Program-made: the position numbers and the translations under genes
Notes under the pieces: model-generated
Told to the model about the DNA's origin: nothing
Seen by the model: only the letters and a program-made list of their open reading frames with translations
Databases searched by the model: none
IMG/VR virus record: IMGVR_UViG_2939521961_000009
Reading direction: 5' to 3' (one strand)
Origin: a virus
Taxonomy: Duplodnaviria; Heunggongvirae; Uroviricota; Caudoviricetes
Length of the DNA: 64,000 nt
Shown here: one piece after another, positions 23,992 through 39,050 of the stretch
Layout of the letters: each line of letters opens with the position of its first letter
How positions within the stretch are numbered: the first letter of the stretch is position 1

Positions 23992-24307
23992 GTTGTCGCC
24001 GCGCCTCCAGACGACGAATACTGGCCTTGTCCACGTTGCAGTTCTTGATCACCGCCAGCAGTTGCAGGTTGTAAGTGACCGATGCCCCAAACGTGAACGG
24101 CTCCGGCGCAGGAGGGACCAGGCAGTCAGCCAGCCATTCAGCGGGGATCGGCACCGGCTTCACAGGCACGTATTTCACAGACGGCCCGGCGCACCCGATC
24201 AGCCACATCATCAGGAACAGGGGCAGAGGCCGCAGGCACTGCCGCCAGCGACCGGCGGACAACGCTCTGCTGCCCCTCGCTGTGCTGAATGTTCTGTTGT
24301 TTTTCAT
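23936..24307 (-). CDS. Putative o-spanin (Rz1-like outer-membrane lipoprotein), overlapping the i-spanin gene
   Basis: Alternative frame within/after Rz-like gene; signal peptide ending in lipobox LIGC followed by Pro-rich sequence; start (MKNNRTF at 24307) uncertain. Confidence 0.5.
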   Translation of the reverse strand: MKNNRTFSTARGSRALSAGRWRQCLRPLPLFLMMWLIGCAGPSVKYVPVKPVPIPAEWLADCLVPPAPEPFTFGASVTYNLQLLAVIKNCNVDKASIRRLEARRQHEFTDMAGTPAVPAGKTK

Positions 24308-24488
24308 TCGTGGCCGCCTCACTGATTTGTGAAATGAGTTGCAGGGTGTGCTGCTGATTTGCCAGCACCTGACGCGCCTCATCCCGCTCACGCACAAGCA
24401 CCTGATTATTGTCTTCAAGGCGCTGCGTCTTCTGGTGCATTCCCCATATAGCGGCAACCAGTACAGCGATAATCCCCAGCGCCGCCAT
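24138..24488 (-). CDS. Putative i-spanin (Rz-like); start uncertain (ATG 24488 or upstream GTG ~24536)
   Basis: N-terminal TM helix AALGIIAVLVAAIWG then coiled-coil-like Gln/Arg-rich region; directly downstream of endolysin. Confidence 0.55.
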   Translation of the reverse strand: MAALGIIAVLVAAIWGMHQKTQRLEDNNQVLVRERDEARQVLANQQHTLQLISQISEAATNEKQQNIQHSEGQQSVVRRSLAAVPAASAPVPDDVADRVRRAVCEIRACEAGADPR

Positions 24489-24600
24489 GCACGCCCCGGC
24501 AATCAGGGCCGGTAAGGCATTATTCACCGCAGCCACAGGACACCCCGTAACAGCAGTACCGCACACAGCAGCGCTATCATGAGCGGTCGCCAGAAGCGGT

Positions 24601-25101
24601 TCAGACTTTCGGCAAGTCGTAGCGACATAACCATTCATCCGCCGAACGGCGGGCCTCAAGGCCGGGGAGTTTCACCCCCTTTGAATAAATCCAGCGGATA
24701 TACTGCTTACAGGACGCGGGCATCTGCCCGGCATTGATCAGGCGCAGAAGCGTGGAGTTGCGAAAGTTCGTTTCACCGGCCCAGAAGATCCACGAAGCCA
24801 GCGCCACCGTCTGACCACGGGTAAGCGGCACCTGAACACGCCGATCAATGGCCGCAAAGGCCCATTTCATGTCCTTTTCCAGTAGTTCCAGGCATTCTTC
24901 ATCTGTCAGGGTCATACCCGGTTTCACATCCGGGCCGGTATGGCCGTAACAGATGGTGGGTGTACCGGTGGGATCGATATACGTGGAGTTTTCTTTCCCT
25001 TCCCAGTAACCGGTGTAATGCGTGGCAATCGTGAACGTCCCGGCACCGGCCAGAACAAGGGCAATCAGCTTTTTACGCAGTGGTGCGGGGAGTTTTGGCA
25101 T
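24601..25101 (-). CDS. SAR endolysin (lysozyme, GH24-like)
   Basis: 166 aa; N-terminal signal-anchor-release-like hydrophobic segment LIALVLAGAGTFTIATHY and lysozyme-like body. Confidence 0.85.
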   Translation of the reverse strand: MPKLPAPLRKKLIALVLAGAGTFTIATHYTGYWEGKENSTYIDPTGTPTICYGHTGPDVKPGMTLTDEECLELLEKDMKWAFAAIDRRVQVPLTRGQTVALASWIFWAGETNFRNSTLLRLINAGQMPASCKQYIRWIYSKGVKLPGLEARRSADEWLCRYDLPKV

Positions 25102-25172
25102 TGTTACGCTGTCTCATGATGTTCTCTGAGTCAGCGTAACGGTGAAGGAGAGGCGGCAGGCTTTGCGGAATA

Positions 25173-25598
25173 TCAGAAAAGTGGCGGTTGCGTTCTTGCC
25201 AGATGCAGACGGCGCTGTTCGCGTATGACGGTATAAATCTGGGTTTCTGACATCCGGTAATGGCGGCGAAGGGATTCAATTTTCTCGCCCCGGTCCCAGC
25301 GCGAAAATATCTCATTGTTTCGCAGCTCGGCAAAGAGAGATTCCCCGACCGGCAGGTAATAACCCCGTCCGCCCATATAGGCTGCCTGAGCCGCAGCCAC
25401 CTTGCGTGCCAGTTTACCGGCCAGTACCGGCTCAATCCCCTGACGCTGAAGTTCTGCGCCGGTGACTTCAACCAGTTCTGACAGGGTCCGCGGCCAGTTC
25501 TTTTTGAGAACATCATCAGGGATGTCATCAAGGCGGTCGATAAGGGCGTGCAGTTGCTCACTGTCACCACCAAACATGCTCATCTGAGTTTCTGCCAT
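25173..25598 (-). CDS. Mor/C-family transcriptional activator (late/middle gene activator)
   Basis: 141 aa with C-terminal HTH-like region, positioned immediately upstream of the lysis/late genes as in Mu. Confidence 0.75.
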   Translation of the reverse strand: MAETQMSMFGGDSEQLHALIDRLDDIPDDVLKKNWPRTLSELVEVTGAELQRQGIEPVLAGKLARKVAAAQAAYMGGRGYYLPVGESLFAELRNNEIFSRWDRGEKIESLRRHYRMSETQIYTVIREQRRLHLARTQPPLF

Positions 25599-25667
25599 AT
25601 CAGCCTCCGGTTCTCGCGTTCCCGGTAAGTTTAAAATAAAAATCCCGCGTTGTGGCGGGATTTGGAG

Positions 25668-26177
25668 TTAACGGGGAAGTGATTTTTCATACTGCCTGCA
25701 AACGGCGTCATACCCCATCAGCGTGCGTTCGGGCATTCCCATCGCGGCCAGCATTTTGCGGCGGTGCCATCGCTTGAGACGCTCCAGCACATCTGAGGCC
25801 AGGGCGGGGTGTTGCTCCAGCCACTGCCAGTTTGCCACACCTTCGCCGCCGTTTTGCGCGGCCGTCTGCGATTTCACCCAGCGGTTAAGGGCGGTTTCCG
25901 CACCATCGGTGATAAAGCCCTGCCGGTGCATCACCTTCCAGATGGCGCGAATTTTGGCGGTCACCGTACCCGGTTTTAAGGCCCGGTTAACCGGGTTCTG
26001 ACGCACTTTAAAACCGCGTTTTTTGAAAACATCCAGCACGCGGGATAACTCATCCGGTGACATATCCCGGCAGCTGGTTTTGCCGGTGGCTGCCAGCAGC
26101 GCGGATGTATAAGTCTCATCATCCAGGGCAAGCTCGCGCTTTGCCACATGAATGGCGGATATCAGTTTTCCTCTCAT
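25668..26177 (-). CDS. GemA-like protein (Mu gp16-like)
   Basis: 169 aa, position upstream of Mor/C-like gene. Confidence 0.65.
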   Translation of the reverse strand: MRGKLISAIHVAKRELALDDETYTSALLAATGKTSCRDMSPDELSRVLDVFKKRGFKVRQNPVNRALKPGTVTAKIRAIWKVMHRQGFITDGAETALNRWVKSQTAAQNGGEGVANWQWLEQHPALASDVLERLKRWHRRKMLAAMGMPERTLMGYDAVCRQYEKSLPR

Positions 26178-26470
26178 ACCGTATTTACCTTTTTACGGAC
26201 ATGGAAAGCCTTTTCTGCCTCATCCCACCGGGCATGGTGTGTTGGTGGAATAATCATTATGTGCCAGCCATCTCTGGTTGTTATCCGGCAGAAAAATTCA
26301 CCGCTATATAACACAATGGCCTGCTGAATGAGCGCATCAGCCGCCCGTTCAACCGGATGTCTTTTATCAAAAAAGCAGATGATTTTTCGACATAACCACC
26401 GGGTAATAACAAATGCGCCGAAAAAGGATGTGATATATAAGCACCAGAACAACAGAGAACTATTGTCCAT
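26174..26470 (-). CDS. Hypothetical small membrane-anchored protein (accessory cassette)
   Basis: 98 aa with N-terminal hydrophobic helix; overlaps upstream gene by 11 bp; AT-rich. Confidence 0.5.
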   Translation of the reverse strand: MDNSSLLFWCLYITSFFGAFVITRWLCRKIICFFDKRHPVERAADALIQQAIVLYSGEFFCRITTRDGWHIMIIPPTHHARWDEAEKAFHVRKKVNTV

Positions 26471-26657
26471 TATCTTTCTCCTTATTCAGTCTTCTGCGAC
26501 ATTCGGCACAGTCATCAGGGCTTTCAAATGTATCCGGCTCGCGATTATGAGCCAGATATAACCACCGCCTACATATACTGATATTATCGCCAGTTTTAAA
26601 AAAATGATGCTTCTTAGCCATCAGAGGGCGCGCCCATCCAGCGGGTAGACTATTCAT
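26460..26657 (-). CDS. Hypothetical small protein (accessory cassette)
   Basis: 65 aa; overlaps neighbours at both ends. Confidence 0.45.
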   Translation of the reverse strand: MNSLPAGWARPLMAKKHHFFKTGDNISICRRWLYLAHNREPDTFESPDDCAECRRRLNKEKDNGQ

Positions 26658-27024
26658 TTGCTTTATCCTCCATACTGGACAAAATCATCTGTATTAATGT
26701 CGGGCGTGGAGATATACGCATTTCATTAAGCGTCTGAAGGGCAGCAACAGCTGCCTGTTTATCGGTGCCTTTGGCAATTTCCGCAAGAGAATGCACAATC
26801 CATAACGGACTTAACGCCACGACTGAATCCAGAATCATGTCATCCATAATAATTTCTGACACATCCCGCTTATCACATTCCTTATCCATAAAAGAAACGA
26901 TTTTTTCCACATCTTCCGGTTTCATGCCTCCGGCGATAAGAAATTTGCGATACTCATAAGACGATCTTAATTCAATACTCATATTCATCTCCTGTAACTC
27001 TGACAAGGACGTGATTTTTCTCAT
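26650..27024 (-). CDS. Hypothetical acidic protein (accessory cassette)
   Basis: 124 aa; ATG overlaps stop of the restored upstream small ORF (ATGA). Confidence 0.5.
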   Translation of the reverse strand: MRKITSLSELQEMNMSIELRSSYEYRKFLIAGGMKPEDVEKIVSFMDKECDKRDVSEIIMDDMILDSVVALSPLWIVHSLAEIAKGTDKQAAVAALQTLNEMRISPRPTLIQMILSSMEDKANE

Positions 27025-27118
27025 TTATGTTTTCCAGTAATACGGATATATATGTCGATAAGAAGATTCATAATAAACAGGAAGAGCGACATCCTGATAA
27101 AGAACCAAATATCTGGCA

Positions 27119-27205
27119 TCATGGACAGGTTTCCTGTAATCGCAAATATAACCCCCCCCCCAACACCGGAACGAAAATTGCGAAAAATACAAGTCTCTTT
27201 ATCAT
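27119..27205 (-). pseudogene. Small membrane-protein ORF interrupted by G10 tract (28 codons as sequenced; 61 aa to 27021 if tract is G11 or G8)
   Basis: ATG 27205 overlaps stop of upstream gene; MIKRLVFFAIFVPVLGGG then frame exits; restored frame is hydrophobic and ends in ATGA overlap with next gene. Confidence 0.45.
27152..27161. repeat. Homopolymeric tract, C10 on plus strand (G10 on coding strand)
   Basis: Ten consecutive C at 27152-27161. Confidence 0.95.
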
Positions 27206-27753
27206 GGCGTTAACTCCCGTAATACAGCGTCCTCGGCAGTCCGGCGATGGTGATAAATAAAATTCACCGTACTCTCGGATAATTCAAATTTCTCGCCTAT
27301 TTCCCGGAAGGTAAGACGTCGTGGTGATTCAGCATCCCGTAATTCACGAATAAGATGAACATCATCGTCAGGTATACGGGTGAAGGGCAGCAATTCTCCG
27401 TATTTTTTCATGCTTACGCCAATATATCGCGCCCGATTGTGGACAGAATCCCGGTCTCGCCCCAGATATTCTCCTATTTGCTTACCGGTCATCGTTCTGG
27501 CATTTTTTCGGATAAATTTATCTTCATCATGTTTAAATCTTGGACGTTTGCATTTGAGCAACTCCGGGTAAGTACCGCGTAATAAAACAATCCGGTTATG
27601 TACACCCCAGAAACTTCTTTTTACCCTGACAGCAATATCCTTAACCGGGGTGGATGGATAAAGCGCAATCAGCAGCGCATCTTCTTCAGGTGTCCACGCA
27701 CGGACATGAGCAGGTGCCTGACCTTTTCGCCCCATGGGTTGTAAAATCATCAT
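27202..27753 (-). CDS. Hypothetical protein, possible DNA-binding regulator
   Basis: 183 aa basic protein with repeated helix-rich segments; function not recognised. Confidence 0.5.
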   Translation of the reverse strand: MMILQPMGRKGQAPAHVRAWTPEEDALLIALYPSTPVKDIAVRVKRSFWGVHNRIVLLRGTYPELLKCKRPRFKHDEDKFIRKNARTMTGKQIGEYLGRDRDSVHNRARYIGVSMKKYGELLPFTRIPDDDVHLIRELRDAESPRRLTFREIGEKFELSESTVNFIYHHRRTAEDAVLRELTP

Positions 27754-27756
27754 ACA

Positions 27757-28272
27757 TCACCCCCTGACTCGCTTTTCAGCAGCATAAAACTCATCAGACA
27801 GAATTTCGGTCATTTTCTGATTTGCGGGTTTTACGCCGCACTCAAGGTAAATCACATCGTCAACGCAGAACCACTTCACAGGGCCAAACATGATTGCCGA
27901 GAAATCAATACCCAGCCAGAACAACAGTGCATCGGTTCTGGCATACGTGACGGGCGAATATTCACGCCACAGACTGTTAAGTTCGTCAGAGGCAACGCGC
28001 AGGGCTTTGGGAATACGTGATGTGCGCGGTGTGCAGCTCCAGCCATTCGACGCAGTCGGTTTTCGCCATAAGTCGCGATGAAAAGGATATTTGTCATCCA
28101 TAAAGCGCAGCCCTTTAAAACAAAAGCCACTGATACCGGATACAAATACCGACCGGCACGCAACATTCAGCACGGCCTCAAGGCGTTTTGCCTCATCCTT
28201 AACTTTCTGGCAGTCCTGCTGATATTTTTGCCACGCGGCCAGCGCGGAAGGGTTTGATGTTTTAAAGAACAT
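27757..28272 (-). CDS. Hypothetical early-region protein
   Basis: 171 aa ORF, tightly packed with neighbours. Confidence 0.5.
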   Translation of the reverse strand: MFFKTSNPSALAAWQKYQQDCQKVKDEAKRLEAVLNVACRSVFVSGISGFCFKGLRFMDDKYPFHRDLWRKPTASNGWSCTPRTSRIPKALRVASDELNSLWREYSPVTYARTDALLFWLGIDFSAIMFGPVKWFCVDDVIYLECGVKPANQKMTEILSDEFYAAEKRVRG

Positions 28273-28805
28273 TACGCCACCTCCGCAGATATCCCGGCAG
28301 GCGCGGCCGTCCGGTCAACAATCAGGTAACGCAGAACGCGCGAGGTGATATTCCAGCCGCTTAAACCGCAGATAATGACACCCAGGCGTATGTCGATATA
28401 CGCCATCACAAACTGGGGCACGCCTTCTTTCATGGCCTGCTCATCAACTTCAGCCACCACATAAACGGTTTCACAGGTCAGAACGCCCTGAGCAAATTCC
28501 CACGCCATTGACGGAATATCATGCCCCTCAATCCACGGCAGGGATTTTCTGAAGCTGCACCACTGAACATCATCAGCCGCACCTTCCTGGCTGCATTTGC
28601 GACGAACCGGCTGCACCGGGCGGGGACGCGGAATATCATAAAAACCGTTACATTCCGTCAGCACCCCGGCATCGACCGCATCACGCAGAAAATAAACCAT
28701 CGAGGATGGCGGCATATTCATTTTTTCAGCCAGAATGCCGCAGGTCAGACGCCCGTAAATACTCAGCCAGTTTTTAACCCCTTCAAGCACTTTTGCATCA
28801 ATCAT
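28272..28805 (-). CDS. Hypothetical early-region protein
   Basis: 177 aa ORF, start overlaps upstream stop. Confidence 0.5.
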   Translation of the reverse strand: MIDAKVLEGVKNWLSIYGRLTCGILAEKMNMPPSSMVYFLRDAVDAGVLTECNGFYDIPRPRPVQPVRRKCSQEGAADDVQWCSFRKSLPWIEGHDIPSMAWEFAQGVLTCETVYVVAEVDEQAMKEGVPQFVMAYIDIRLGVIICGLSGWNITSRVLRYLIVDRTAAPAGISAEVA

Positions 28806-28808
28806 GAA

Positions 28809-29351
28809 TTATTCCTCCGTCAGCGCCACATATTCAGAATGTTTAATCTCCTGGCATTCTTCAGGAATACCCCCTTTTATTTCCCTGCCATAAGCGCCTA
28901 CTTTAAACACCACGCACAGGGCATCACGGGAGAGCGACGGGGTCCACCAGGAGTCCATGTTAAACATGGAGGGGATTCTCATTACCCCCAGCTTTTCACA
29001 GAGCCAGACAAGGAAATCAGGACGCTTTCTTAACTCGCGTTCAGCGGCTTCAATCATTGCGGCAATCGCCGGTCCTTCAGGGCATGACTCATCAGGTCTG
29101 GCAATAAAGCACGGTCCGTCCCCGATAAAAGCCACATCATCGCGCTTACGCCAGCCCGCAGGCAGAGCACCAGAAAAATAAAACTCACTGATTACGTCCA
29201 TGGCAAACGGCTTTAAGCGCAATCCGGCAGCGCCTGTATTTTTCAGTAATGCCCGAAGAATACTGTTGCGTAGCGGTAAAACAGTCTGTTGATATTTGGT
29301 GAAATATTTATTTGTCTGCACACGGTCTAATTTGAAATAAAAATATGCCAT
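28809..29351 (-). CDS. Hypothetical early-region protein
   Basis: 180 aa ORF. Confidence 0.5.
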   Translation of the reverse strand: MAYFYFKLDRVQTNKYFTKYQQTVLPLRNSILRALLKNTGAAGLRLKPFAMDVISEFYFSGALPAGWRKRDDVAFIGDGPCFIARPDESCPEGPAIAAMIEAAERELRKRPDFLVWLCEKLGVMRIPSMFNMDSWWTPSLSRDALCVVFKVGAYGREIKGGIPEECQEIKHSEYVALTEE

Positions 29352-29448
29352 ATATCCTGTTCCTTATTTTCAGTTTACAGGCGCAGGCAGTCCCCTGACG
29401 CGAGCGCCATACTTAAAACGATGTGATATTTAAAGATTTAATGCGGTG

Positions 29449-29979
29449 TTATTTATTCAGTCCGGCGTCCTGTTCAAAAGGCTCGACATAAAAACTTTCA
29501 GCGCCTTTATTCACCTTAATACCGGCAATGCCTTTCACTGCATCCGGCTCCGCCAGGACCGCTTCCTTGTTCACTTCCTCTTTCGTGCGGATGAATCGCT
29601 CAAGCCCCATACGGCGCAGCATTTCAATCACACCTTCCACATCACGGCTGACGCTGCATGATGGATTTCCCAGCCGCCATGATACTGTTCCGGTGGTCAG
29701 ATTGGCTGTTTTGGTTTTGCCGCCGTTCGTCAGCTCATCGCGGTTGGTTTTGCACCAGTCCTGAATCCCCTTAAAAAGCACTTTGATTTCTTTTTTAAGG
29801 TTTTCAATCTGCGGCGTATAACGGGCGGTGATTTCTGCCACTTCATCATTCATCGCCGTTTCCAGCCGCAGCGCCTCTCGCTGAATATCGCCCAGGGTAC
29901 GGATATCGCGGCTGACTTCTTCGCGGGTCTGCGGTGCAGCCTCGGCTGCGGCCTTTAATTTTGTAACACGTTTAGCCAT
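29449..29979 (-). CDS. gam: Gam-like host-nuclease inhibitor protein
   Basis: 176 aa, coiled-coil-rich, Mu Gam-like sequence and position. Confidence 0.75.
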   Translation of the reverse strand: MAKRVTKLKAAAEAAPQTREEVSRDIRTLGDIQREALRLETAMNDEVAEITARYTPQIENLKKEIKVLFKGIQDWCKTNRDELTNGGKTKTANLTTGTVSWRLGNPSCSVSRDVEGVIEMLRRMGLERFIRTKEEVNKEAVLAEPDAVKGIAGIKVNKGAESFYVEPFEQDAGLNK

Positions 29980-29990
29980 TTTGTTTTTCC

Positions 29991-30284
29991 TTATTGCAGT
30001 GTGCCTGATGCTTTATGCACGCGGTGGCGTTTAATGATGGCATCCGCCCCAAAAGCCTGTACAGATGCCTGAAATTCCGCTGAGAGAAACTGAATAATTT
30101 CAGGACTGTGATACTGGAGAATACTTGCATAAACGTCACAGAGTGACGTCGGCCTGTTATTCGTATCACGTTCTGTTTTTACATCCACACCAATCTTTTC
30201 ATGCACTTCAACACAGTCATTGCCTGCCGGTTTTTCGTCATGCGAAACATGCTTAAATTCAAAAATAACGCGTACTTTGCTCAT
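29991..30284 (-). CDS. Hypothetical small protein, paralog A (start at MSKVRVIFEFKHV)
   Basis: N-terminus parallels the adjacent upstream gene product. Confidence 0.45.
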   Translation of the reverse strand: MSKVRVIFEFKHVSHDEKPAGNDCVEVHEKIGVDVKTERDTNNRPTSLCDVYASILQYHSPEIIQFLSAEFQASVQAFGADAIIKRHRVHKASGTLQ

Positions 30285-30288
30285 GGAA

Positions 30289-30561
30289 TTACCCCTGCTG
30301 ATTAAATTCATTACCTTTAATAACCCCGGAACGCATGCTCATATCTTTCATGAGCGCACTGGCTTTCATTGCCACAAGTTCAGCAAAGTCTCTGCTTTCC
30401 GCGAGCATAACCACCCCAAAAATCATGGCGGGTCCATCACCTTTCTGCTTTATCCCGGTTGAACGTATGTCCAGACTTACCCCCATGCGCACTGTTCCAT
30501 CAGCGTTTTTATGGATAACGTGCTCCTTGTATTCGAAAATAATGCGTACGACTTTACTCAT
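30289..30561 (-). CDS. Hypothetical small protein, paralog B (MSKVVRIIFEYKEHV...)
   Basis: 90 aa; N-terminal similarity to paralog A. Confidence 0.45.
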   Translation of the reverse strand: MSKVVRIIFEYKEHVIHKNADGTVRMGVSLDIRSTGIKQKGDGPAMIFGVVMLAESRDFAELVAMKASALMKDMSMRSGVIKGNEFNQQG

Positions 30562-30839
30562 CCTCTGGTCCTCGTTCTGTTTGGATAACTGACCCGGCGT
30601 CTGACCTCACGGCAGAACCGAATCATGGCATTAAAGGCTTCTTCCTCCGTCACCGCTTCCGGTATCCCCGGAACCAGTAACTGCTCCTGTTCATCACGTC
30701 CATGACGCGCCATAACCTCAATCACATGCCGTACCGTGGCAGGCTTTCCGGCAACTATCGGCAATGCACCTTCCGGCAGGACGTAACCAAACTCAATAAG
30801 ACCACTCGACCACGCCCATGCAATGAGATTTTTTTTCAC
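30558..30839 (-). CDS. Hypothetical early-region protein
   Basis: 93 aa ORF. Confidence 0.45.
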   Translation of the reverse strand: MKKNLIAWAWSSGLIEFGYVLPEGALPIVAGKPATVRHVIEVMARHGRDEQEQLLVPGIPEAVTEEEAFNAMIRFCREVRRRVSYPNRTRTRG

Positions 30840-30840
30840 C

Positions 30841-31107
30841 TCACACCTCCCAGTAAACCGTGCAGCCGCTGATGCGGGTGGCCTTCACACGGCGGCGCAG
30901 GCCGTTGGTCTGTATGGTGATTTCAATTTCACCGGTTCCCTGCACGTTGCCTACCGGCGGCGTGGTTTTCAGTGCAAAACGTTGCGGATAGCGCTTACTG
31001 CGTTCCAGTACCGCACCGGCAAGTTCGGTCAGACGGCGCGCGCTGTTCAGGGAGTCGAATAAATTCATTTTGTTACCGCAGGATTGCATATTCATATAAC
31101 ACCTCAT
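30841..31107 (-). CDS. Hypothetical early-region protein (start uncertain)
   Basis: 88 aa ORF. Confidence 0.4.
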   Translation of the reverse strand: MRCYMNMQSCGNKMNLFDSLNSARRLTELAGAVLERSKRYPQRFALKTTPPVGNVQGTGEIEITIQTNGLRRRVKATRISGCTVYWEV

Positions 31108-31335
31108 TTAGCTGACTTGTTTCGCACCAACAGAACGGCATATTCCGCTGTAAACGTCTGTCGCACCTTCGCGATCAAGTCCGGCAGATATCACCATTCG
31201 TGTGCGGTCATTAAATTCAAAAAGAAAATCGCCACATTCTTTATTTTCGGCCAGTGAAATCACCTTCACGTTATCGAAATTAACCAGGTAAAAGCGTCCG
31301 TAAATATCAGGAATATTAAATACCGCCATAATCAC
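31108..31335 (-). CDS. Hypothetical small protein directly downstream of B (Kil position)
   Basis: 75 aa ORF overlapping B stop. Confidence 0.4.
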   Translation of the reverse strand: MIMAVFNIPDIYGRFYLVNFDNVKVISLAENKECGDFLFEFNDRTRMVISAGLDREGATDVYSGICRSVGAKQVS

Positions 31336-32264
31336 ACCTGTGAGAGTAATTCAGGGTTGGTATAAACCTCTTTAAAGGCCGCATTAATATGTTTTTCTGT
31401 CAGCGCCGCGCCTTCACCGCTGGCGGTGAGCCACGCCTGGTTAAGCGTATGTGTCAGAACGCGTAACGCTCCCGGCTTTTCAGCGATAGCCTGCATGACG
31501 GCCAGCTCGGCCTCACCACTGATCCCCCACGCCCTGGCAATGGCCAGCACATCCGCCTTTTTGGCCTTGCGAAGTTGTTTTGTACGGGCAAGACGGCTGA
31601 ACAGGCGCGATAAATCATCAAAGGCGCGGCGTCCACCTTTAAACAATCCGCGCGGGTTACCAATAAGCACCATCCCGATCCCCGTGGCGTCCTGAATTGC
31701 CCGGAGTTGCTCCAGACCGTCAATACCAAGATGATCCGCCTCATCCACAATCACCAGTCCACGCGTTCCCATCAGGCGACGGCGGATGGCGCGGGATAAT
31801 GCCCCTTTGTTCGCGCGGGTGTAATCAATCCCCAGCGCATCGGCCAGCTCCAGCAGACACTCCGTGACGCTGGAGTGCGCGGGTGACAGGGTGATCATCC
31901 AGGTGTTTGGTTGCTCCTGGCAGTAATTACGGGCAGTGGCCGTTTTACCCACACCCGGTACGCCCACAATAACGTTAATACAGCCCATCAGACGAACCGC
32001 CTGAAACAGTGCGCGCAGCTCCTGGACTGTCTGCGTTTCCACAAACTGCGGCGGTTCCGGCAGTGCGCTTTGTTTATTCCAGTTCTCATACCAGGAACGC
32101 AGGGAAGCAGCCACAGCAGCGTTATCGCCTTTATATTTTCCCTTACGGAAAGCCGATAATGTGCCGTCGGAAATTCCCGCCTCTCTGGCGATGGCATACT
32201 GCGTCAGTACGCCGCCATCAATAAGTTCATCAATGGTCTTGATTACATCGTTAATATCAGTCAT
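31332..32264 (-). CDS. B: Transposition ATPase MuB-like
   Basis: 310 aa; N-terminal HTH, Walker A GVPGVGKT. Confidence 0.9.
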   Translation of the reverse strand: MTDINDVIKTIDELIDGGVLTQYAIAREAGISDGTLSAFRKGKYKGDNAAVAASLRSWYENWNKQSALPEPPQFVETQTVQELRALFQAVRLMGCINVIVGVPGVGKTATARNYCQEQPNTWMITLSPAHSSVTECLLELADALGIDYTRANKGALSRAIRRRLMGTRGLVIVDEADHLGIDGLEQLRAIQDATGIGMVLIGNPRGLFKGGRRAFDDLSRLFSRLARTKQLRKAKKADVLAIARAWGISGEAELAVMQAIAEKPGALRVLTHTLNQAWLTASGEGAALTEKHINAAFKEVYTNPELLSQV

Positions 32265-32335
32265 ATTATTAACCTCTCATTTGATACCTTGTTTAATCAA
32301 ATAACCTGAGTCGCCGCTCGGGTTATTTTTTTATT

Positions 32336-34426
32336 TCAGGCCAGCGGGTCATTTTCTTTTAATTTCGCTTCCAGCAACTGCAATCCCCGCTGGAAATTAC
32401 GCTCGTATTCTTCATCAGGTTCATCGTCAGCGACCGGTTGCTGAACGGTCACCGTATTACCCACAGGGCGGTATATGTTTTCCAGCCAGGGCTCCTGCGG
32501 CTTGTGCTCCAGCACGTTGACAACCTCATCCTCGGCATCACGGATTTTTTCCTCTGCGCGTTTACGCATGCCTTTAAGGCGTTGCTGCTGTTTGTAGTAT
32601 TCCGCGCTAACCGGGAAGGCTTCGCGTTTATTACCGTCCCATACCGCCTCGCAAATCACGCTGCCATCCAGGCGACGTACGGTAATTCGTTCGGCATCAT
32701 GAATGTCATAGCTGATAAGCACCTTACGACCATGCTCGTCACGCAGCTCGGGCGCGTAGTAAATATTATTCAGCCAGCGTATTTCACAGCGTCTTACAGG
32801 GCGTTCCACCATCGGCCGGAACATATCCCGCAGCTCAACATCGGACAGCCATTCAATTTCCGTGTCCTCTTCCGCCAGGCGTTTTTTTCTGAACTCCGCC
32901 GGGCTGTAATGCTTGCCGTTCGGCTTCACCGGTAATTCATCGTGCGGCCGGTTGTTGTACCACTCAACACCGTCACGAATGGCATCAATCAGTTCAGACC
33001 AGGACGGTAAATCACGCATCGCTGACTGCTGCCGGGCGTTCAGCCGTTTGCCCTGTTGCAGGGCAGTAAATGCCGAGCGTAAATCGCGGTTGGTTTTGCG
33101 TAACGTCTCGCGATCTGCACCTTTCCCGAAATAGGTGCGGTATTTACGGGCTATGCGCATCGGTAATGTGCGGTTAAGCCGTTCGATAATGCCTCGTCCC
33201 TGCGGATTACCGGCAATCCCGGTCGGGTGATTAATCCCCAGTCGCGGCAGTATCCCCACAACCTCCTTATCCAGGATGTCGGCGGTTTCCCCGGAGCCGT
33301 TATCCGAGTAATACAGAAACGGTTTGCCGTGATGGCGAATGCCGTGCTGTATGGCACCGGCTACGGCGAAAACATTTTCAGCCAGGTCAAGGCTCCAGCC
33401 CACCACAAAGCGCGTGCCACCGTCGATAACAAAGGTCACTTCCGGTGCAAATGGCCGACCGTGAACCGGGTGTGCGCATTTCAGCTTCATGCCGTGACCG
33501 TCACCAATCCAGACATAATTCACCGGCATTCTGGACCAGTCGCGGCGCGTGAATCCCTCAAGCTGGCGGTATTCACTGCCGGTCACCCGGCCTTTTTGTT
33601 TCACCACTTCCGGCAGTTTCTTCATTGCGCGGCGAATGGTGTCATAAGACGGCATGATATCGAGCATATAAGGCTCATCAGCGTGCCGGTGCTGCCATTC
33701 AGCGACAAAATCCTCGTAAGCCTCGGTCATTGGTCGGCCGTTTGACTGGCGATACTGCGCCAGAAATTCGGGCAGCCAGTTAATATCTTCAGCTTTTATT
33801 TCCTGGCGCTTACCCGGTGCCAGTAAAAGCAGGCGTTCAGCGGCGTTCTGCGCCTTGTTAAAGGCCGCAATCCAGCGTTTCAGCGTTATTTCACTCAACG
33901 CACGGCTGTTTCCCTTTTTGGCGTTCGCCGTCTCAACCATTGCCACAATGCGCTCGTCCAGTTGCGAACGTGCCAGGTTGTCAACGATAAACCGGATAGC
34001 TTTCGCACAGCTGAAACCGGGTTGTTGCGCGACTTTCATCACTTCGCTGACGATCGCAATTCGTGCATCAGCCACCTGGCGCTGGTTTTCAGTCAGGGCA
34101 TTAAGGCGTTCAACCATCAGTTGTGGTGATCCGCGATATGCCTCCACCGCATCAACCACGGCAGGCGAGCGTCTGGCCTTTGTCACCACCGGAGCCGGTG
34201 ATTCATCAGCTTTTTGCGTCATCAGTTGAAGGGCATAACGTTCACGCAATACTTGTTGCGCGCCAGAAGGCAAACAATCGATATTAAATTCGATTGCTTT
34301 TGTCCCCTTACGTTTGCGTAACATGGCTGCATTTCCCGCAGCTGCTTTTGTGAGTCGATGGCGAATGTTATGTTCCATCATTGGTAAATCAGGAAGACCA
34401 ACACATTCTTTTGCTGTTACCCACAT
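32336..34426 (-). CDS. A: DDE transposase MuA-like
   Basis: 696 aa; N-terminus WVTAKECVGLPDLP parallels Mu A WVSPKECANLPGLP; followed by B. Confidence 0.9.
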   Translation of the reverse strand: MWVTAKECVGLPDLPMMEHNIRHRLTKAAAGNAAMLRKRKGTKAIEFNIDCLPSGAQQVLRERYALQLMTQKADESPAPVVTKARRSPAVVDAVEAYRGSPQLMVERLNALTENQRQVADARIAIVSEVMKVAQQPGFSCAKAIRFIVDNLARSQLDERIVAMVETANAKKGNSRALSEITLKRWIAAFNKAQNAAERLLLLAPGKRQEIKAEDINWLPEFLAQYRQSNGRPMTEAYEDFVAEWQHRHADEPYMLDIMPSYDTIRRAMKKLPEVVKQKGRVTGSEYRQLEGFTRRDWSRMPVNYVWIGDGHGMKLKCAHPVHGRPFAPEVTFVIDGGTRFVVGWSLDLAENVFAVAGAIQHGIRHHGKPFLYYSDNGSGETADILDKEVVGILPRLGINHPTGIAGNPQGRGIIERLNRTLPMRIARKYRTYFGKGADRETLRKTNRDLRSAFTALQQGKRLNARQQSAMRDLPSWSELIDAIRDGVEWYNNRPHDELPVKPNGKHYSPAEFRKKRLAEEDTEIEWLSDVELRDMFRPMVERPVRRCEIRWLNNIYYAPELRDEHGRKVLISYDIHDAERITVRRLDGSVICEAVWDGNKREAFPVSAEYYKQQQRLKGMRKRAEEKIRDAEDEVVNVLEHKPQEPWLENIYRPVGNTVTVQQPVADDEPDEEYERNFQRGLQLLEAKLKENDPLA

Positions 34427-34436
34427 ACATCCCCCA

Positions 34437-34703
34437 TCAAGCCACTTCTCTGGCGTCCACCTGGTATCTGCTGGGCCAGATTACAGCAGGTTCAACCCCT
34501 ATTTTTTCGGCGATGGCGGCTTCGTATTTACGGCACTGGCGGTAAAACACATTGCGCATTGATCCGCTTTTTAATCCTAACTCCCTTTCCAGTTCAGGGA
34601 GGTCTGTGCCTTTGTTTTCAAGGGCTGCATATACCGCTTTAGCAGACCAGTCACACCCCTCTCGAACAAACAAATTATTCGATGCTTGTCTGGATACCCT
34701 CAT
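34437..34703 (-). CDS. ner: Ner-like DNA-binding protein
   Basis: 88 aa ending ...VIWPSRYQ as in Mu Ner. Confidence 0.8.
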   Translation of the reverse strand: MRVSRQASNNLFVREGCDWSAKAVYAALENKGTDLPELERELGLKSGSMRNVFYRQCRKYEAAIAEKIGVEPAVIWPSRYQVDAREVA

Positions 34704-34859
34704 TGTGTGATCCTCTCATGTTTACCTGAACCGATAATCAAAACCGGTTATCGATTTAGGTAAATCATAATCGCAAAATAATTCGATATCAACGGTTTTT
34801 TGCGAGCATATCGAAATTAAATGCGATGTCGATAATTTCTTTGTTTTATAGGGGGTTAT
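34704..34859. promoter_or_regulatory. Divergent early promoter/operator region between repressor and ner
   Basis: AT-rich intergenic region with repeated CGAT(A/G)TC-containing motifs between divergent genes. Confidence 0.5.
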
Positions 34860-35471
34860 ATGGATAAGGCAGAAAAAACCGTATCCAGTGCGGAACGGTT
34901 TATTGATATGGAAGGAATAAACCGATTTTCAGAACGCTTAGCTATGGCTATGGGAAACATGACAAACGTCGAACTGGCGACCCTTTGTGGACTATCTGAA
35001 GCCACAGTAAGAAATTACAGGAAGGGGAAAAACTTCCCTCCTTTGGATAAACTGGCCTTAATAGCTAAAGCCTGTAATTGTTCACTCGAATGGTTGGCCA
35101 CAGGCAAGAACGAAGATGAATGCGGAAAAATCGAAAACAATTGCGATTCAGGTTCGGGTATTGATCAGGCGCTTAGCTCTCTAAGCCCCCAAGAGAAGCA
35201 ATTAATCCTTACATTCATCAGGCGAGAAGGTACTAATAACCTTGTCAGGCTGGCAGCAATGAATACATCTACAATCAGCCAGGATGCGGTAGAAAGCATC
35301 ATTGATGCCTTGCCATTACGTCCCGTACTAAAAAATGCAATAAAGATAGGAATGGCGGGAAGTGAAGAAACAGACAAAGAGATTTTGCGCGTTATTGAGA
35401 AGTACAACTCGAGCAATAACGCCACCCAGGAATCAGGGGCAGTGACAGTAAAGAAAAATGTTGTTGGTTAA
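34860..35471 (+). CDS. HTH (XRE-type) repressor, Mu c-analogue
   Basis: 203 aa; N-terminal HTH NVELATLCGLSEATVRNYRKG; divergent from ner at the prophage left end. Confidence 0.7.
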   Translation: MDKAEKTVSSAERFIDMEGINRFSERLAMAMGNMTNVELATLCGLSEATVRNYRKGKNFPPLDKLALIAKACNCSLEWLATGKNEDECGKIENNCDSGSGIDQALSSLSPQEKQLILTFIRREGTNNLVRLAAMNTSTISQDAVESIIDALPLRPVLKNAIKIGMAGSEETDKEILRVIEKYNSSNNATQESGAVTVKKNVVG

Positions 35472-35617
35472 GCGCCATCGCTATCATGAGGTGGTGCTGT
35501 AAATACATATAGAGATCATATGACTCATCCCAAGATAATCACGCTATTGAATAGTAATTCATGATGATTATCATACTGATTATAGTTAGATCGATTATGT
35601 GAGCATTTTGGCAGTTT

Positions 35618-35650
35618 GAAGATGTTTTGAAGATGTTTTGAAGAAGATTT
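35618..35650. repeat. Tandem direct repeat (GAAGATGTTTT unit, ~2.5 copies)
   Basis: gaagatgttttgaagatgttttgaagaag read directly. Confidence 0.8.
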
Positions 35651-35654
35651 TAAG

Positions 35655-35838
35655 GGTAAATTAGCAGTATCAAATGTGTCGCCGTTTTTTGATCTTTTGA
35701 CTATTTGTTGAGCAGTCGGTATCAAAAAGAGTTTTCCGTCCGAAGTATACATCACCTGTTTTATTTCAGCATCTTACAGGTGATTTCACCTCCTTTCACT
35801 AAAACCCTTGTCGGTATCAAATGATTCACCTGGTTACA
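35655..35838. repeat. Mu-like left-end (attL) with three transposase-binding repeats and terminal TG
   Basis: Minus strand reads TGTAACCAGG TGAATCATTTGATACCGACAAG (like Mu L1 TGATTCACTTGAAGTACGAAAA); further TTTGATAC(C/T)G copies at 35707-35729 and 35655-35678. Confidence 0.55.
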
Positions 35839-35985
35839 CTGGTCGGCAGTTCGGTTCTCCCGTCGGGCTTTGTGTGTCCGCGTCGTTTTTACGGCCTCAT
35901 AAGCCTGGATCACCGCACGGGAACGCAGCCTTGCCGCTTTCCATCCTGGTGAAAAAACGCCAATCACATCATCAAGAATTGCCAT
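35839..35985 (-). pseudogene. Lambda-family portal protein, N-terminal 49 codons only (truncated by Mu-like insertion)
   Basis: MAILDDVIGVFSPGWKAARLRSRAVIQAYEAVKTTRTHKARRENRTADQ then frame runs into Mu-like end; follows W and terminase A in lambda order. Confidence 0.65.
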
Positions 35986-36203
35986 CAGAACCTCGCCAGC
36001 CGGTACCCGGGATGCCCCCGTCGTCGTGTAATCAGAGCCGCAAGGCGGCGCTCCCACTCCTGCCGTCCCTGCCGGATCTCAGATAAGTTTTCCATGGTCA
36101 TCTGCTGACCATTAAAGGTGACGGATTTTCCGTCCAGCACCGCCATTTCAGCTTCCGTATAACGCTGAATCATGGCTTCGATATCATTCTGGTTCATAAC
36201 CAT
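35985..36203 (-). CDS. Head-tail joining protein W-like
   Basis: 72 aa ending ...RRRGHPGYRLARF, located between terminase A and portal. Confidence 0.65.
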   Translation of the reverse strand: MVMNQNDIEAMIQRYTEAEMAVLDGKSVTFNGQQMTMENLSEIRQGRQEWERRLAALITRRRGHPGYRLARF

Positions 36204-38293
36204 CCTCCGGAAGTCAGCCAGGGGTTAACATCGTCAGTTACTGTTTTCTTCCGTTTTTGTTTTTTAACAGGCGTGGATACCGGTTCCGGTGAGGATGACG
36301 GTTCGGTACTGTCCTGGACACACTCCAGCCAGGTCTCCCGGCTCGCCCACTCCGGTGCATCCGGCCAGCGGATCTTTTCGTATCCATGCAGAATGACCAG
36401 AGCCTCGGCATACACCATCAGGTCAAAAGCTTCGTTGGCACCGCGACCCGGCTTACTCCATTTCCCGTCACTGCTCCGCTCTTCATACGTCAGTTCGTCG
36501 TAAAACCAGCTCCCCAGCCAGTCAGGGAAATGCACATAGCCTGGACCTGGCGAGTCACGCCATAACGCGTTATTCACCCGGTCTTTCAGGGCATCCGTCT
36601 GAAGAAGCCAGAGCGGCACATCACCTGCGGCCTGCGCCCGGCGGCCCGTTCGTCCGGTGTTATCAGGGAATGTACGGCTGATCAGTTTTGCGCGCCGGAT
36701 GCTGTCACCCTTAAACAGGTAAATACGTTTACCAAGGCCATCACGACGGCAACGACGCCAGAATTTATAGGCATTATCAGTGACCCCGTCTTCACCGCCG
36801 GAGTCCACCGCCATTGCCATCAGTCGCATTTGTTGAGAAGGATCGGAGGCCAGCGGCCAGCTTTTATGAAAAACATCCGTCAGCAGGACATCCCAGTCTT
36901 CCGGATAGCTGGCCGGATCAATTCGCTGGCTCTCCCCGTCGCAGTCACTGCGCAATGACTGCGTGATGTTGTAACGATCAATAATCCAGCGTTCGCCACG
37001 ACTGCCATAGCCCGTTACCTGAACCACAAAACGGCGATGACGTCCCGCCTGCACATCCACTGTCGCCACAAGGAAATTAACGCCATCCGGCACACTGCGG
37101 GAAGGAACTGGCTCTGCCCGCTGCTCAAGCAGTTCACTTTTTCGTTGCTCCATGCTGGCACGAGGAAGATAAGGCAATCCCCAGTCGGTGTTGATAACCG
37201 CCCTGAGTGTTTCTTCGCTTCCTGTCGCTTCATACTCCTGTTCTGCAGTCAGTAATTTGTAAACCAGTTGCGCCCAGGTCTGATACGCAGCAGCTGGCCC
37301 TTCCATCCAGAAACTGGCGATACGGGAGCGGCGCGGTTCACCGGAAACGTTGCCGTTACGATCAATGACCTGACCTTCACGCAACCAGACTCCTGCACTA
37401 TTGAGCTCACGCTTTTTCTCCGCAGTGATAATGCCGCTGCAGTGCGGGCAAAGTAGATACGCCGCCTCACTGGCTTTAAAGGGATCCGGTTCATTACGGT
37501 AGCCGGTCATGGCATCCATGGCTGGCTGAAAATATTCACCGCAGTGCGGACATGACCAGTACCAGCGGCGGCGGTCACCACGATTGTAAAGGGAAAGAAT
37601 ACCAGTCGTCGGTGGCGCTTCATGAGGCGACTTACGTCGCCATTTGCTGTCGCAGATGTCACGTCCCGGCGAGCTCTCCACCAGAGTCATCCCAGCGGAC
37701 ATAAATGTGGTGGTACGTTTTGAGGCCAGGGAGAAACCATCACCCTCGCTGTCGATATTCTCCGGAAAACGGTCGTAATCGGTTAAGGCGACAAACCGGT
37801 AATCCGACGACGACATAATGTTGACCGAGGGCCAACCAATTTTAAGGAACGAGCCATCCCTGAACGTCTTATCATGGACATTATTGTCGTTACGACGTGG
37901 ACTCATTCTTTTCTTTACCGCCGCACTGCTTCTGAACGTTCTGTCGAGGCGCTTTTTAGAATGCTCGCGGGCCTTATCTTCGGTCATCTGCACAACGAGC
38001 ATGTCCGAAGGATCGCAAACGATGGTATAGACAATCCATCCATCGATCAGACCAATGGTCTTCCCTGTTCGCGCAGGACCAACAAAAATCACCGCATCGT
38101 ATTCACGCGATGCCAGGCAGTTCATGGGCTCAATGATGTAGGGTGTCAGTTCAGGATCCCATGGCACCGAGTTACCAGCCCCCTTGGGAACACGCATGAA
38201 TTTTTTAACAGCCTCCGAAATCGGCATGCGACGTGGTGGGGAAAATCCTGCCGATATGTCCCTTCCCAAATTTCGGGCTGATGAAAAACCCAT
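36194..38293 (-). CDS. Terminase large subunit (lambda gpA-like)
   Basis: 699 aa; Walker A GPARTGKT. Confidence 0.9.
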   Translation of the reverse strand: MGFSSARNLGRDISAGFSPPRRMPISEAVKKFMRVPKGAGNSVPWDPELTPYIIEPMNCLASREYDAVIFVGPARTGKTIGLIDGWIVYTIVCDPSDMLVVQMTEDKAREHSKKRLDRTFRSSAAVKKRMSPRRNDNNVHDKTFRDGSFLKIGWPSVNIMSSSDYRFVALTDYDRFPENIDSEGDGFSLASKRTTTFMSAGMTLVESSPGRDICDSKWRRKSPHEAPPTTGILSLYNRGDRRRWYWSCPHCGEYFQPAMDAMTGYRNEPDPFKASEAAYLLCPHCSGIITAEKKRELNSAGVWLREGQVIDRNGNVSGEPRRSRIASFWMEGPAAAYQTWAQLVYKLLTAEQEYEATGSEETLRAVINTDWGLPYLPRASMEQRKSELLEQRAEPVPSRSVPDGVNFLVATVDVQAGRHRRFVVQVTGYGSRGERWIIDRYNITQSLRSDCDGESQRIDPASYPEDWDVLLTDVFHKSWPLASDPSQQMRLMAMAVDSGGEDGVTDNAYKFWRRCRRDGLGKRIYLFKGDSIRRAKLISRTFPDNTGRTGRRAQAAGDVPLWLLQTDALKDRVNNALWRDSPGPGYVHFPDWLGSWFYDELTYEERSSDGKWSKPGRGANEAFDLMVYAEALVILHGYEKIRWPDAPEWASRETWLECVQDSTEPSSSPEPVSTPVKKQKRKKTVTDDVNPWLTSGGWL

Positions 38294-38301
38294 TATTCCT
38301 C

Positions 38302-38859
38302 CTAGAGACTCTCTCCTTCCTCATCAGGAATTAATTCAGCAGCACAAGCCTCGTAGGATTTTTCCTGAAGAGTGTATCGCAGGTCATCAATGGCCTGCTG
38401 TACAACGCCGACGGCCTGAGGAGTCAGGGCGCAATCGCGTTCAAGAACATCCGGAATTGTCTCCAGAACCTGGACGACAGCCTTTCTCATGGACGAATAG
38501 ACGATGACTACTTCATCAACGGGGATGAGTTTTCGCTGCTCCTTTTCCAGCTTGATCCTTTCATTTTCAGATTGGTACCAGTCCTTTCTCTCTTTCGGCT
38601 CCATACGGGATGGATCATGAACAGAGTCTGCTGCCTCATGCTTCACACTAAACAGGGCTGGCCCGACATGCTGCAGGGCGTAAACGGGGTTCCCCCTGAC
38701 AGTCGCAGCCACAGGAGTGTTAGCCGCGAGGAGCCGTTTTTTTACTGTGTCCCGGTGAAGCCCAAAGGCCTCAGCGATTTTAAAAACACTCCAGTAATAA
38801 GCATCACCGATCCCGCTCACATTTGACATAAGCAACTCCATCTGGCAGGTGAAAATCAT
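38302..38859 (-). CDS. Terminase small subunit (Nu1/NohA-like)
   Basis: 185 aa, N-terminal HTH, upstream of gpA. Confidence 0.8.
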   Translation of the reverse strand: MIFTCQMELLMSNVSGIGDAYYWSVFKIAEAFGLHRDTVKKRLLAANTPVAATVRGNPVYALQHVGPALFSVKHEAADSVHDPSRMEPKERKDWYQSENERIKLEKEQRKLIPVDEVVIVYSSMRKAVVQVLETIPDVLERDCALTPQAVGVVQQAIDDLRYTLQEKSYEACAAELIPDEEGESL

Positions 38860-39008
38860 GTTTATTTATATATTTCAATTAATTGCAAACTGGTCTAATG
38901 ACAGGGAGAAAGAAATATTGTACAGGTGAAAAGAGAAATAACTTTTAATTATCAATAAATTACCAAACATGCTGCCGCCGCCATGGAAATGCAAAAACTA
39001 GCCTTTTT

Positions 39009-39026: not shown

Positions 39027-39050
39027 GTGGCAGGGGCCCCCACCGGGAGG

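Follow-up and report, generated by a model that had tools for sequence, protein, structure and literature searches.

Four genes in a variable stretch between gam and gemA in the early region of a Mu-like prophage

Four small and tightly packed genes in the early region of a Mu-like prophage raise the question of what their products are and whether they act as a unit. The genes lie in a window of 64,000 nucleotides, the whole stretch of DNA that was analysed, and the carrier is a Mu-like prophage of the kind found in E. coli O157:H7 and other STEC genomes. About 14 ORFs occupy the semi-essential early region of Mu, as has been recognised for decades, and most of them have no assigned function; the region contributes to host killing, and its deletion is tolerated and relieves that killing (PMC3325207). 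An earlier note had assigned the four ORFs to this region and had located them between gam and an AT-rich cassette; both placements proved correct (Table 1).

Table 1. Coordinates of the four genes and of the features that frame them in the window
Feature	Position	Strand	Description
gene A	27202-27753	minus	183 aa; three tandem Myb/homeodomain-like helix-turn-helix repeats, putative DNA-binding
gene B	27757-28272	minus	171 aa; Mu gp12 orthologue (PF26885), probable remote paralogue of D
gene C	28272-28805	minus	177 aa; Mu gp11 orthologue, Pfam Gp11_C
gene D	28809-29351	minus	180 aa; divergent DUF5420 protein, SfMu ORF11 equivalent
gam (Mu Gam, host-nuclease inhibitor)	29449-29979	minus	Pfam Phage_Mu_Gam PF07352, 1.5e-41; PHROG 491
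gemA	25668-26177	minus	Pfam PF06252, 3.2e-30; downstream synteny anchor, early operon end
terminator-like hairpin	25663-25640	minus	directly 3' of gemA
Pe-like sigma-70 promoter	34764-34792	minus	upstream of ner; 10/12 consensus positions (consensus scan only)
low-GC cassette	26174-27192		38-44% GC

The organisation of the block is that of a compact operon segment. Transcription proceeds after gam, the upstream neighbour and synteny anchor of the block, in the order D, C, B, A. Genes A, B, C and D all begin with ATG in the ORF list, and a Shine-Dalgarno-like sequence (AGGA, GGAGGA, GGAGG, GGGGG) stands 5-10 nt 5' of each start. Three nucleotides separate the stop codon of D from the start of C, the C/B junction is a common TAATG, three nucleotides again separate the stop of B from the start of A, and the stop codon of A overlaps the following ATG, an arrangement by which the four genes are translationally coupled. 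From the Pe-like promoter to gemA, the consensus scan revealed no comparable minus-strand promoter and no strong terminator, and this promoter is likely the start of the transcript that carries all four genes; an Rfam search of positions 24000-36500 returned no RNA family.

These are real genes and not chance ORFs. All four are under purifying selection, with pairwise dN/dS values against related prophages of 0.25 for A, 0.19 for B, 0.13 for C and 0.37 for D (for comparison, gam 0.07 and gemA 0.24). RefSeq E. coli genomes annotate each of them as a CDS; of 5426 complete E. coli genomes, 233 contain the region, and 215 of these 233 keep nearly the whole of it. The four ORFs of 183, 171, 177 and 180 aa that had been reported are thus confirmed in their exact coordinates, ribosome-binding sites, coupled stop and start codons, purifying selection and RefSeq annotation. 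Their composition is uneven: GC3 is 0.40 in A and 0.48 in D versus 0.53-0.59 in the neighbours, and the median nucleotide difference of A reaches 14.8% versus 4-5% for its neighbours.

The earlier note had found none of the four assignable to a known family, which was wrong, as a family can be named for each. Gene C is 67% identical to Mu gp11 over 177 aa, full-length and collinear, and is identified from this match as the Mu gp11 orthologue. Supporting this assignment, residues 90-167 match Pfam PF25754 (Gp11_C) across profile positions 1-78 of 78 (7.9e-40; 135.5 bits against a gathering cut-off of 27), and the protein matches PHROG 1949 at 2e-105. An alignment of 18 sequences reveals a conserved N-terminal domain (aa 1-60), a variable linker and the Gp11_C domain (aa 90-167). 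The N-terminal domain is possibly a winged helix, its helix-turn-helix (HTH) and winged-helix matches being all sub-threshold (E 0.04-0.3). Matches of gp11 to macrophage migration inhibitory factor in PDB searches (E 0.2-0.4) were dismissed as noise.

Gene B, directly after gp11, is assigned by similar means as the orthologue of Mu gp12, with 54% identity over 169 aa (E 4e-68), full-length and collinear; its TAATG overlap parallels the overlap of gp11 and gp12 in Mu. It matches PHROG 2314 at 1e-85, and RefSeq names it a 'Mu-Gp12 family protein'. The label PF26885 is precomputed and comes from relatives of B that are 94-98% identical; the copy of Pfam that was searched returned no family for B, nor for Mu gp12 itself.

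Neither gene D nor SfMu gp11 has a Pfam match even at E<=1, the gathering threshold of PF17457 (DUF5420) not being reached. A profile of the D family retrieves relatives at E values of 1e-9 to 1e-4 among 1.8 billion proteins, and 18 of the 21 aligned sequences match PF17457. D also scores 78 bits, along its entire length, with an HMM made from 12 remote relatives and no D-type sequence. The DUF5420 motifs are YFK, PDRRYKEGK, P.FS.W and EIKKSEF[IV]ALTEE; D contains YFK, P.F..W and IKHSEYVALTEE, and its central motif has decayed. By these profiles D is placed as a divergent member of DUF5420 of the SfMu ORF11 type. The D-type proteins make up a very narrow subfamily of 14 clusters at 90% identity, nearly all from E. 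coli, and a profile search of genome contigs with the DUF5420 alignment found only 3 loci.

Genes B and D are likely remote paralogues that share one alpha/beta fold, a homology that was anticipated when SfMu ORF11 and Mu gp12 were proposed as possible divergent homologues (PMC4406740). An hhalign comparison of B with the DUF5420/D-family profile gave E 6e-4 over 158 collinear columns with a probability of 28%, versus E 0.14-0.39 over 17-33 columns for controls; the first comparison, of a shallow D alignment with B, was not significant (E 0.42), and the signal appeared only with the deeper DUF5420 profile. B and D present their secondary-structure elements in the same order, and six of the top eight neighbours of B in a Foldseek search of BFVD are among the top 13 of D, the model of B being of low confidence (pLDDT 64.8, residues 35-111 poor). 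Among solved structures in the PDB, none resembles the B/D fold, and the two families have no conserved residues in common that would suggest catalysis. A PD-(D/E)xK nuclease motif was considered within PDRRYKEGK and rejected: the spacing is wrong, the segment forms a loop and helix start in the model, and neither D nor B preserves it. The two proteins are read as non-enzymatic because PDRRYKEGK has become PDESCPEG in D and stands as PRTSRIP in B.

Gene A encodes a protein of three HTH repeats, at about aa 17-68, 70-119 and 125-171 in a repeat alignment. Residues 2-182 match positions 80-256 of the 319 in PHROG 323 (E 6.3e-59), for which 'transcriptional regulator, D5-like' is an annotation label. 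All Pfam scores are below the gathering cut-off (HTH_AsnC 22.4 bits against 27, HTH_11 21.2 against 25, Sigma70_r4 19.4 against 24.1 and Myb 14.7 against 24.4); A is HTH-like and outside any named Pfam HTH family. A profile of A matches the tandem-HTH protein 2lvs (E 0.016) and the homeodomain 2da1 weakly in the PDB, identity to the SfMu gp09/Mu gp9 type is 27%, and RefSeq names for A include 'DNA-binding', 'AsnC family' and 'SANT/Myb-like'.

The distribution of the genes among related prophages is revealing of how loosely they are held together. Dozens of enterobacterial Mu-like prophages share the arrangement gam-[D]-C-[B]-[A]-small ORFs-gemA-mor. In a sample of 57 non-redundant Mu-like loci anchored on gp11, C lies directly downstream of gam or D in all 57; B is present in 41 of them, D in 33 and A in 27. 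The full set DCBA occurs in 22, C alone in 11, CB in 8, DCB in 6, and CBA and DC in 5 each; a D-C-A locus exists as well, so that related prophages hold seven subsets. That same prophage contradicts a rule that A never occurs without B, which had held in a 63-locus sample. The deletions are clean, with 146 nt from gam to C where D is missing. The earlier note had allowed that all four might turn out to be routine Mu early proteins of invariant occurrence; only two of the four occur in Mu, which lacks D and A, and presence and absence vary widely.

Remote-homology searches and structure prediction, the checks that had been proposed, placed all four proteins in families and yielded neither a similar solved structure nor a function. 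PDB searches with single proteins and with profiles gave chance-level matches only, Foldseek against BFVD retrieved only uncharacterised phage proteins with no annotated structural neighbours, and NCBIfam gave no family for A, B, C or D. PADLOC had no match for B, C or D, and for A only a weak match to the DNA-binding region of a homing endonuclease (E 0.008). No functional study of Mu gp11, gp12, DUF5420 or the RefSeq accessions came up in literature searches, nor did any paper linking the families of A-D to defence. The absence of any established function had been rightly noted before; the accompanying hint at host takeover or anti-defence receives no direct support from PADLOC, annotated structural neighbours or the literature.

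The reading favoured here, somewhat more probable than not, is that A-D are dispensable and individually exchangeable accessory genes of the Mu-like early (Pe) operon, none of whose products, we infer, is an enzyme. Protein A would bind DNA, as the N-terminal domain of C probably would too, and both would serve as regulators or architectural factors in lytic development; B and D would be small binding proteins that modulate DNA transactions of the phage or host, for example replicative transposition, DNA-end handling or recombination. This role of B and D is suggested because DUF5420 genes are neighbours of gam in the Mu-like group and, in phages unrelated to it, of NinB, of an exonuclease with a DNA methylase, or of a clamp-like gene; such neighbours abound in the early regions of phages, which makes the argument a weak one. 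That the four might instead form one obligate system, such as a prophage defence or toxin-antitoxin module, could be read from their similar sizes, their coupled stop and start codons and their near-complete retention in the 215 E. coli genomes. However, because gene subsets vary across the 57 loci (C, CB, DC, DCB, CBA and DCBA, with DCA besides) and the deletions are clean, such a system is largely refuted and must be considered extremely improbable; PADLOC does not match it, and expression would come from a lytic early promoter and not from one active in the lysogen.

An anti-defence or host-takeover cassette, in which at least one of the four products inhibits host immunity or shuts off a host function early in lytic growth, is unlikely, although several observations accord with it. 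The block sits in the early semi-essential region beside gam, itself a host-nuclease inhibitor, and host-lethal functions are found in that region of Mu (PMC3325207); close relatives carry or lack D, B and A independently of one another, dN/dS within the block is highest for D, and the divergence of A far exceeds that of the genes around it. The low GC3 of A and D, together with the patchy distribution, fits exchangeable counter-defence cargo equally well. Nevertheless, no similarity to described systems emerged from PADLOC, Pfam, NCBIfam or the PDB, no paper tying these families to defence was found, dN/dS is well under 1 for all four genes, and the presence of C in every gp11-anchored locus examined is more in keeping with a core function of the phage than with cargo of an arms race. 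That constancy of gp11, always just 3' of gam or D, is compatible with a block, gp11 and gp12 especially, that boosts Mu DNA replication, for instance by acting on DNA ends or on the transpososome with Gam, MuA and MuB. The four genes would then supply 'arm', the classical replication-boosting function, early and non-essential, that maps to the Mu semi-essential region; the possible DNA-binding domain of C and the co-transcription of the block with gam and the MuA and MuB genes, as suggested by the consensus promoter scan, point the same way. Such enhancers are nonetheless quite unlikely, B being missing from 16 and D from 24 of the 57 loci, and homology to replication or transposition proteins was not found. 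It is more improbable still that DUF5420 and Mu gp12 constitute one unrecognised alpha/beta phage superfamily, of small proteins that accompany genes for recombination and for the handling of DNA ends (gam, ninB, exonucleases), whose members D and B form with gp11 a heteromeric module countering or redirecting host repair or nuclease defence; if so, D and B would bracket the two-domain gp11, and a host pathway would be neutralised or redirected toward replicative transposition.

On the favoured reading of exchangeable accessory genes, the locus is ordinary variable phage "dark matter" and no new kind of element. The gam-gemA interval has gp11 as its constant core, and gp12, the DUF5420 gene and the triple-HTH gene come and go. 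As gp12 and DUF5420 are apparently one fold family, a single structure together with a single interaction screen would be informative for both, and the two families occur in hundreds of prophages of E. coli and Salmonella, O157:H7 included. The practical payoff would be modest unless one of the proteins proves to inhibit a host pathway.

Comparison with known systems places each gene beside a relative and also sets it apart. Mu gp11 and gp12 (formerly E10-E12 and E13) agree with C and B in order, overlap and position in the early operon after gam; here, in contrast, they are flanked by D and A, both missing from Mu and D108, and the match provides names without explaining function. Gene A resembles Mu gp9 (E8)/SfMu gp09 of PHROG 323 in its type of HTH repeat and as an early-operon gene of a Mu-like phage, but has three repeats in 183 aa where gp9 has two in 95 aa, and lies downstream of gp12 where gp9 lies upstream of gam; the prophage has no gp9-type gene in that upstream position, and the Mu_9 label is confined to Mu/SfMu-type loci. 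Over two consecutive repeats A is weakly like the tandem-HTH module 2lvs, and it weakly matches DNA-binding regions of homing endonucleases (the PADLOC HEase match; PHROGs 1891 and 6156). Since A has no nuclease domain and these matches fall below significance after multiple testing, the likeness is an analogy of architecture only. Protein D falls below the Pfam model of DUF5420 (PF17457), its central motif decayed, but resembles that family and SfMu ORF11 in length, N-terminal YFK strand, P.F..W and C-terminal IKHSEYVALTEE tail, and it lies between gam and gp11, where SfMu has ORF11 and another Mu-like prophage has a Pfam-positive DUF5420 gene.

The Mu-like prophage in the window lies on the minus strand, and its early end (tabulated from right to left) carries four genes, here called D, C, B and A in order of transcription. 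The coordinates that an earlier note had given for these four ORFs agree exactly with the ORF list, and the gene order likewise places them between gam and a low-GC cassette. The tight packing of starts and stops described there is also seen, with gaps of 3 nt or overlaps at every junction: the TAA of D is separated from the ATG of C by 3 nt, C and B share TAATG, the TGA of B is followed after 3 nt by the ATG of A, and the stop of A overlaps the ATG of the next small ORF. Each of the four genes has an ATG start and an upstream Shine-Dalgarno-like sequence. Because a Pe-like promoter (10/12 matches in a consensus scan) lies upstream of ner and the sole convincing minus-strand terminator in a scan lies just after gemA, A-D are most likely carried on a single early transcript, these promoter and terminator calls being pattern matches and not proof. 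The strong terminator-like hairpin, which has a 9-bp stem with 5 GC pairs and a T-run, fits an early transcript that ends before the regulator of the middle operon. The repressor end of the prophage adjoins a very large adhesin gene (window about 35760-51000); a near-identical genome has this gene annotated as a pseudogene with internal stops (BapA-related SiiEA), and few long ORFs remain in this interval.

Early end of the Mu-like prophage, listed from right to left in window coordinates
Feature	Coordinates	Strand	Remarks
repressor	34860-35471	plus	
Pe-like promoter	34792-34764	minus	upstream of ner
ner	34437-34703	minus	
MuA	32336-34426	minus	
MuB	31332-32264	minus	
five small ORFs	between MuB and gam	minus	kil among them
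gam	29449-29979	minus	
D	28809-29351	minus	180 aa
C	28272-28805	minus	177 aa
B	27757-28272	minus	171 aa
A	27202-27753	minus	183 aa
low-GC cluster of small ORFs	26174-27192	minus	38-44% GC
gemA	25668-26177	minus	
terminator-like hairpin	25663-25640	minus	between gemA and mor
mor	25173-25598	minus	lysis genes beyond

Related prophages differ in which of the four genes they carry. Mu-like loci were collected from IMG/VR with D, DUF5420 and gp11 as probes and their ORFs labelled with HMMs; the order gam-[D]-C-[B]-[A]-variable small ORFs-gemA-mor is constant. Of 57 non-redundant complete loci with gp11 (gene C) as the only anchor, 33 have D, 41 have B and 27 have A, and the combinations are DCBA (22), C alone (11), CB (8), DCB (6), CBA (5) and DC (5). 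Where D is missing, gam and C are only 146 nt apart, and another Mu-like prophage (L129) carries D-C-A without B. Thus gp11 is the constant element around which D, B and A are individually exchangeable, and an obligate four-component system is therefore ruled out.

Downstream, the small cassette ORFs (124, 65 and 98 aa) have matches in PHROGs 1988, 2358 and 17269, none of which has a known function. Cassette content differs between related prophages, with genes of the Mu gp13, gp14 and gp54 types at this position elsewhere. The small ORF that follows A (about 27120-27207) contains a homopolymer of ten G on its coding minus strand (27152-27161; C10 in the plus-strand sequence) and is truncated by it to 28 aa (MIKRLVFFAIFVPVLGGGLYLRLQETCP*). 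At this tract, a related O157:H7 genome reads GGGGGGTGGTTTT, 1 nt longer, with an annotated 61-aa hydrophobic CDS (WP_000595947); the difference stems either from a frameshift or phase-variable tract or from a sequencing error in the homopolymer.

The DNA of the region matches E. coli 2012C-4502 at 100% identity. Of 5426 complete E. coli genomes, 233 contain the region, including many O157:H7 and other STEC, and A-D are all annotated CDSs there. The four-gene block is stable in this lineage, being near full length in 215 of the 233 genomes; one intact Mu-like prophage, Sp18, has been reported in O157 Sakai (PMC2669165). Pairwise dN/dS against related prophages is 0.25 for A, 0.19 for B, 0.13 for C and 0.37 for D, compared with 0.07 for gam and 0.24 for gemA, and A-D are, as judged from sequence, expressed and selected genes. 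Gene A is much more diverged than its neighbours (median nucleotide difference 14.8% versus 4-5%), and GC3 is lower in A (0.40) and D (0.48) than in B, C, MuA and MuB (0.53-0.59).

The earlier note could not assign any of the four to a known family by eye; all four can be placed. Gene C is assigned as the orthologue of phage Mu gp11 (67% identity, full length), matching Pfam PF25754 ('Phage Mu Gp11 C-terminal domain', 135 bits) and PHROG 1949. An 18-sequence alignment divides it into a near-invariant N-terminal domain (aa 1-60), a variable Pro/Arg-rich linker and the Gp11_C domain. Pfam matches of the N-terminal domain are all sub-threshold (E 0.04-0.3), and all are to HTH or winged-helix families (HTH_10, HTH_20, HTH_CodY, PCI, WH4_Lhr), through the same residues in four homologues; this domain is tentatively read as a winged helix. 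Gene B is assigned as the orthologue of Mu gp12 (54% identity; PHROG 2314; 'Mu-Gp12 family protein' in RefSeq), and PF26885 is carried by database proteins near-identical to it. Gene A matches PHROG 323 ('transcriptional regulator, D5-like', 6e-59) and consists of three repeats of one HTH type, about 50 aa each (aa 17-68, 70-119 and 125-171), with sub-threshold Pfam matches to AsnC-type, HTH_11, sigma-70 region 4 and Myb HTH families. It shares 27% identity with SfMu gp09, a two-repeat, 95-aa protein of the Mu gp9 type, and its profile weakly matches the tandem-HTH protein 2lvs over two repeats (E 0.016) and a homeodomain. Weak matches to homing-endonuclease models are attributed to the HTH DNA-binding modules of those models; A itself lacks a nuclease domain.

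Gene D, which is 40% identical to SfMu ORF11, has no match in a Pfam search and lies below the reach of the DUF5420 model. It is nevertheless placed as a divergent DUF5420 member, because 18 of 21 sequences aligned after an exhaustive HMMER search with the D-family profile (26 proteins found among 1.8 billion representatives) match PF17457, and because an HMM built from 12 remote relatives, none of them of the D type, gives D a full-length score of 78 bits. D retains the YFK strand at its N-terminus and a C-terminal tail that is strikingly conserved (I-K-H-S-E-Y-V-A-L-T-E-E, followed by the stop); the central DUF5420 motif, PDRRYKEGK, is decayed. A related Mu-like prophage (L034 5473-6602; IMG/VR UViG_2663762818_000004) has two tandem DUF5420 genes upstream of gp11 and no Gam homologue detectable at the usual position, where several Citrobacter/Salmonella-type loci also show about 700 bp that lack any Gam match.

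Gene B is probably a remote paralogue of gene D. Profile-profile comparison aligns DUF5420 with gp12 end to end (E 6e-4, 158 collinear columns), compared with E 0.39 over 17 columns for gp11 and E 0.14 over 33 columns for A as controls, and a DUF5420-only HMM ranks B second only to D among 26 control proteins. The predicted model of B is the weaker one (pLDDT 64.8); where it is confident, its elements run in the same order as in D: β1 and a long N-terminal helix, then a β-hairpin, a pair of helices at about 90-120, a second β-hairpin, a short strand and finally a C-terminal helix. Six of B's top eight structural neighbours in BFVD fall within D's top thirteen (A0A7G8Z7V2, A0A6G5YHC7, A0A8S5PYN2, A0A0K0N751, A0A6G5YGU2 and A0A0K1LJK8), all uncharacterised phage proteins.

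A-D are best read as non-essential early-operon proteins, in line with the Mu semi-essential region, which can be deleted and is mostly unassigned (PMC3325207). On this reading A would bind DNA, as probably would the N-terminal domain of C. B and D would be non-enzymatic binding proteins, the two families sharing no conserved polar motif and having strongly conserved termini, and would act on phage or host DNA transactions. Outside Mu-like phages, a remote DUF5420 member of an integrase-type temperate phage (L029) shares its early region with genes for an RNase T-like exonuclease and a C5 methylase; others neighbour NinB in a lambdoid nin region (L130) and a protein with a weak beta-clamp-domain match (L128). 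This recurring company, which includes gam in Mu-like phages, consists of DNA-end, recombination and replication functions; the association is weak, since genes of this kind abound in phage early regions in general. For A-D, a role in anti-defence or host takeover appears unlikely, and it is somewhat less likely still that they supply 'arm', the classical replication-enhancing function of Mu.

All four genes fall in families that are already catalogued but have no known function (PF25754, PF26885, DUF5420 and PHROG 323), and hundreds of genomes have them annotated. Modestly new are the placement of D in DUF5420 despite its failing the Pfam model, the probable union of DUF5420 and gp12 in one fold family, and the map of which genes are present or absent around gp11. 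The locus, unsurprising to a specialist, is a reasonable but non-urgent target for function discovery.

Mu and D108 carry the combination CB and have no counterpart of D, as the SfMu authors noted for ORF11 (PMC4406740). Because SfMu ORF11 and Mu gp12 occupy the same region, the same authors guessed that the two 'may be divergent homologues' (PMC4406740). In the window, B (gp12) and D (DUF5420) coexist, flanking gp11. SfMu also keeps a gp12 homologue alongside ORF11, unannotated and apparently fragmented, between ORF12 and ORF13 (HMM E 5e-64, two pieces; L003 3603-3971 = SfMu record 7442-7957, a gap in the annotation), so that the published absence of a Mu gp12 equivalent from SfMu would reflect a pseudogene or an annotation gap.
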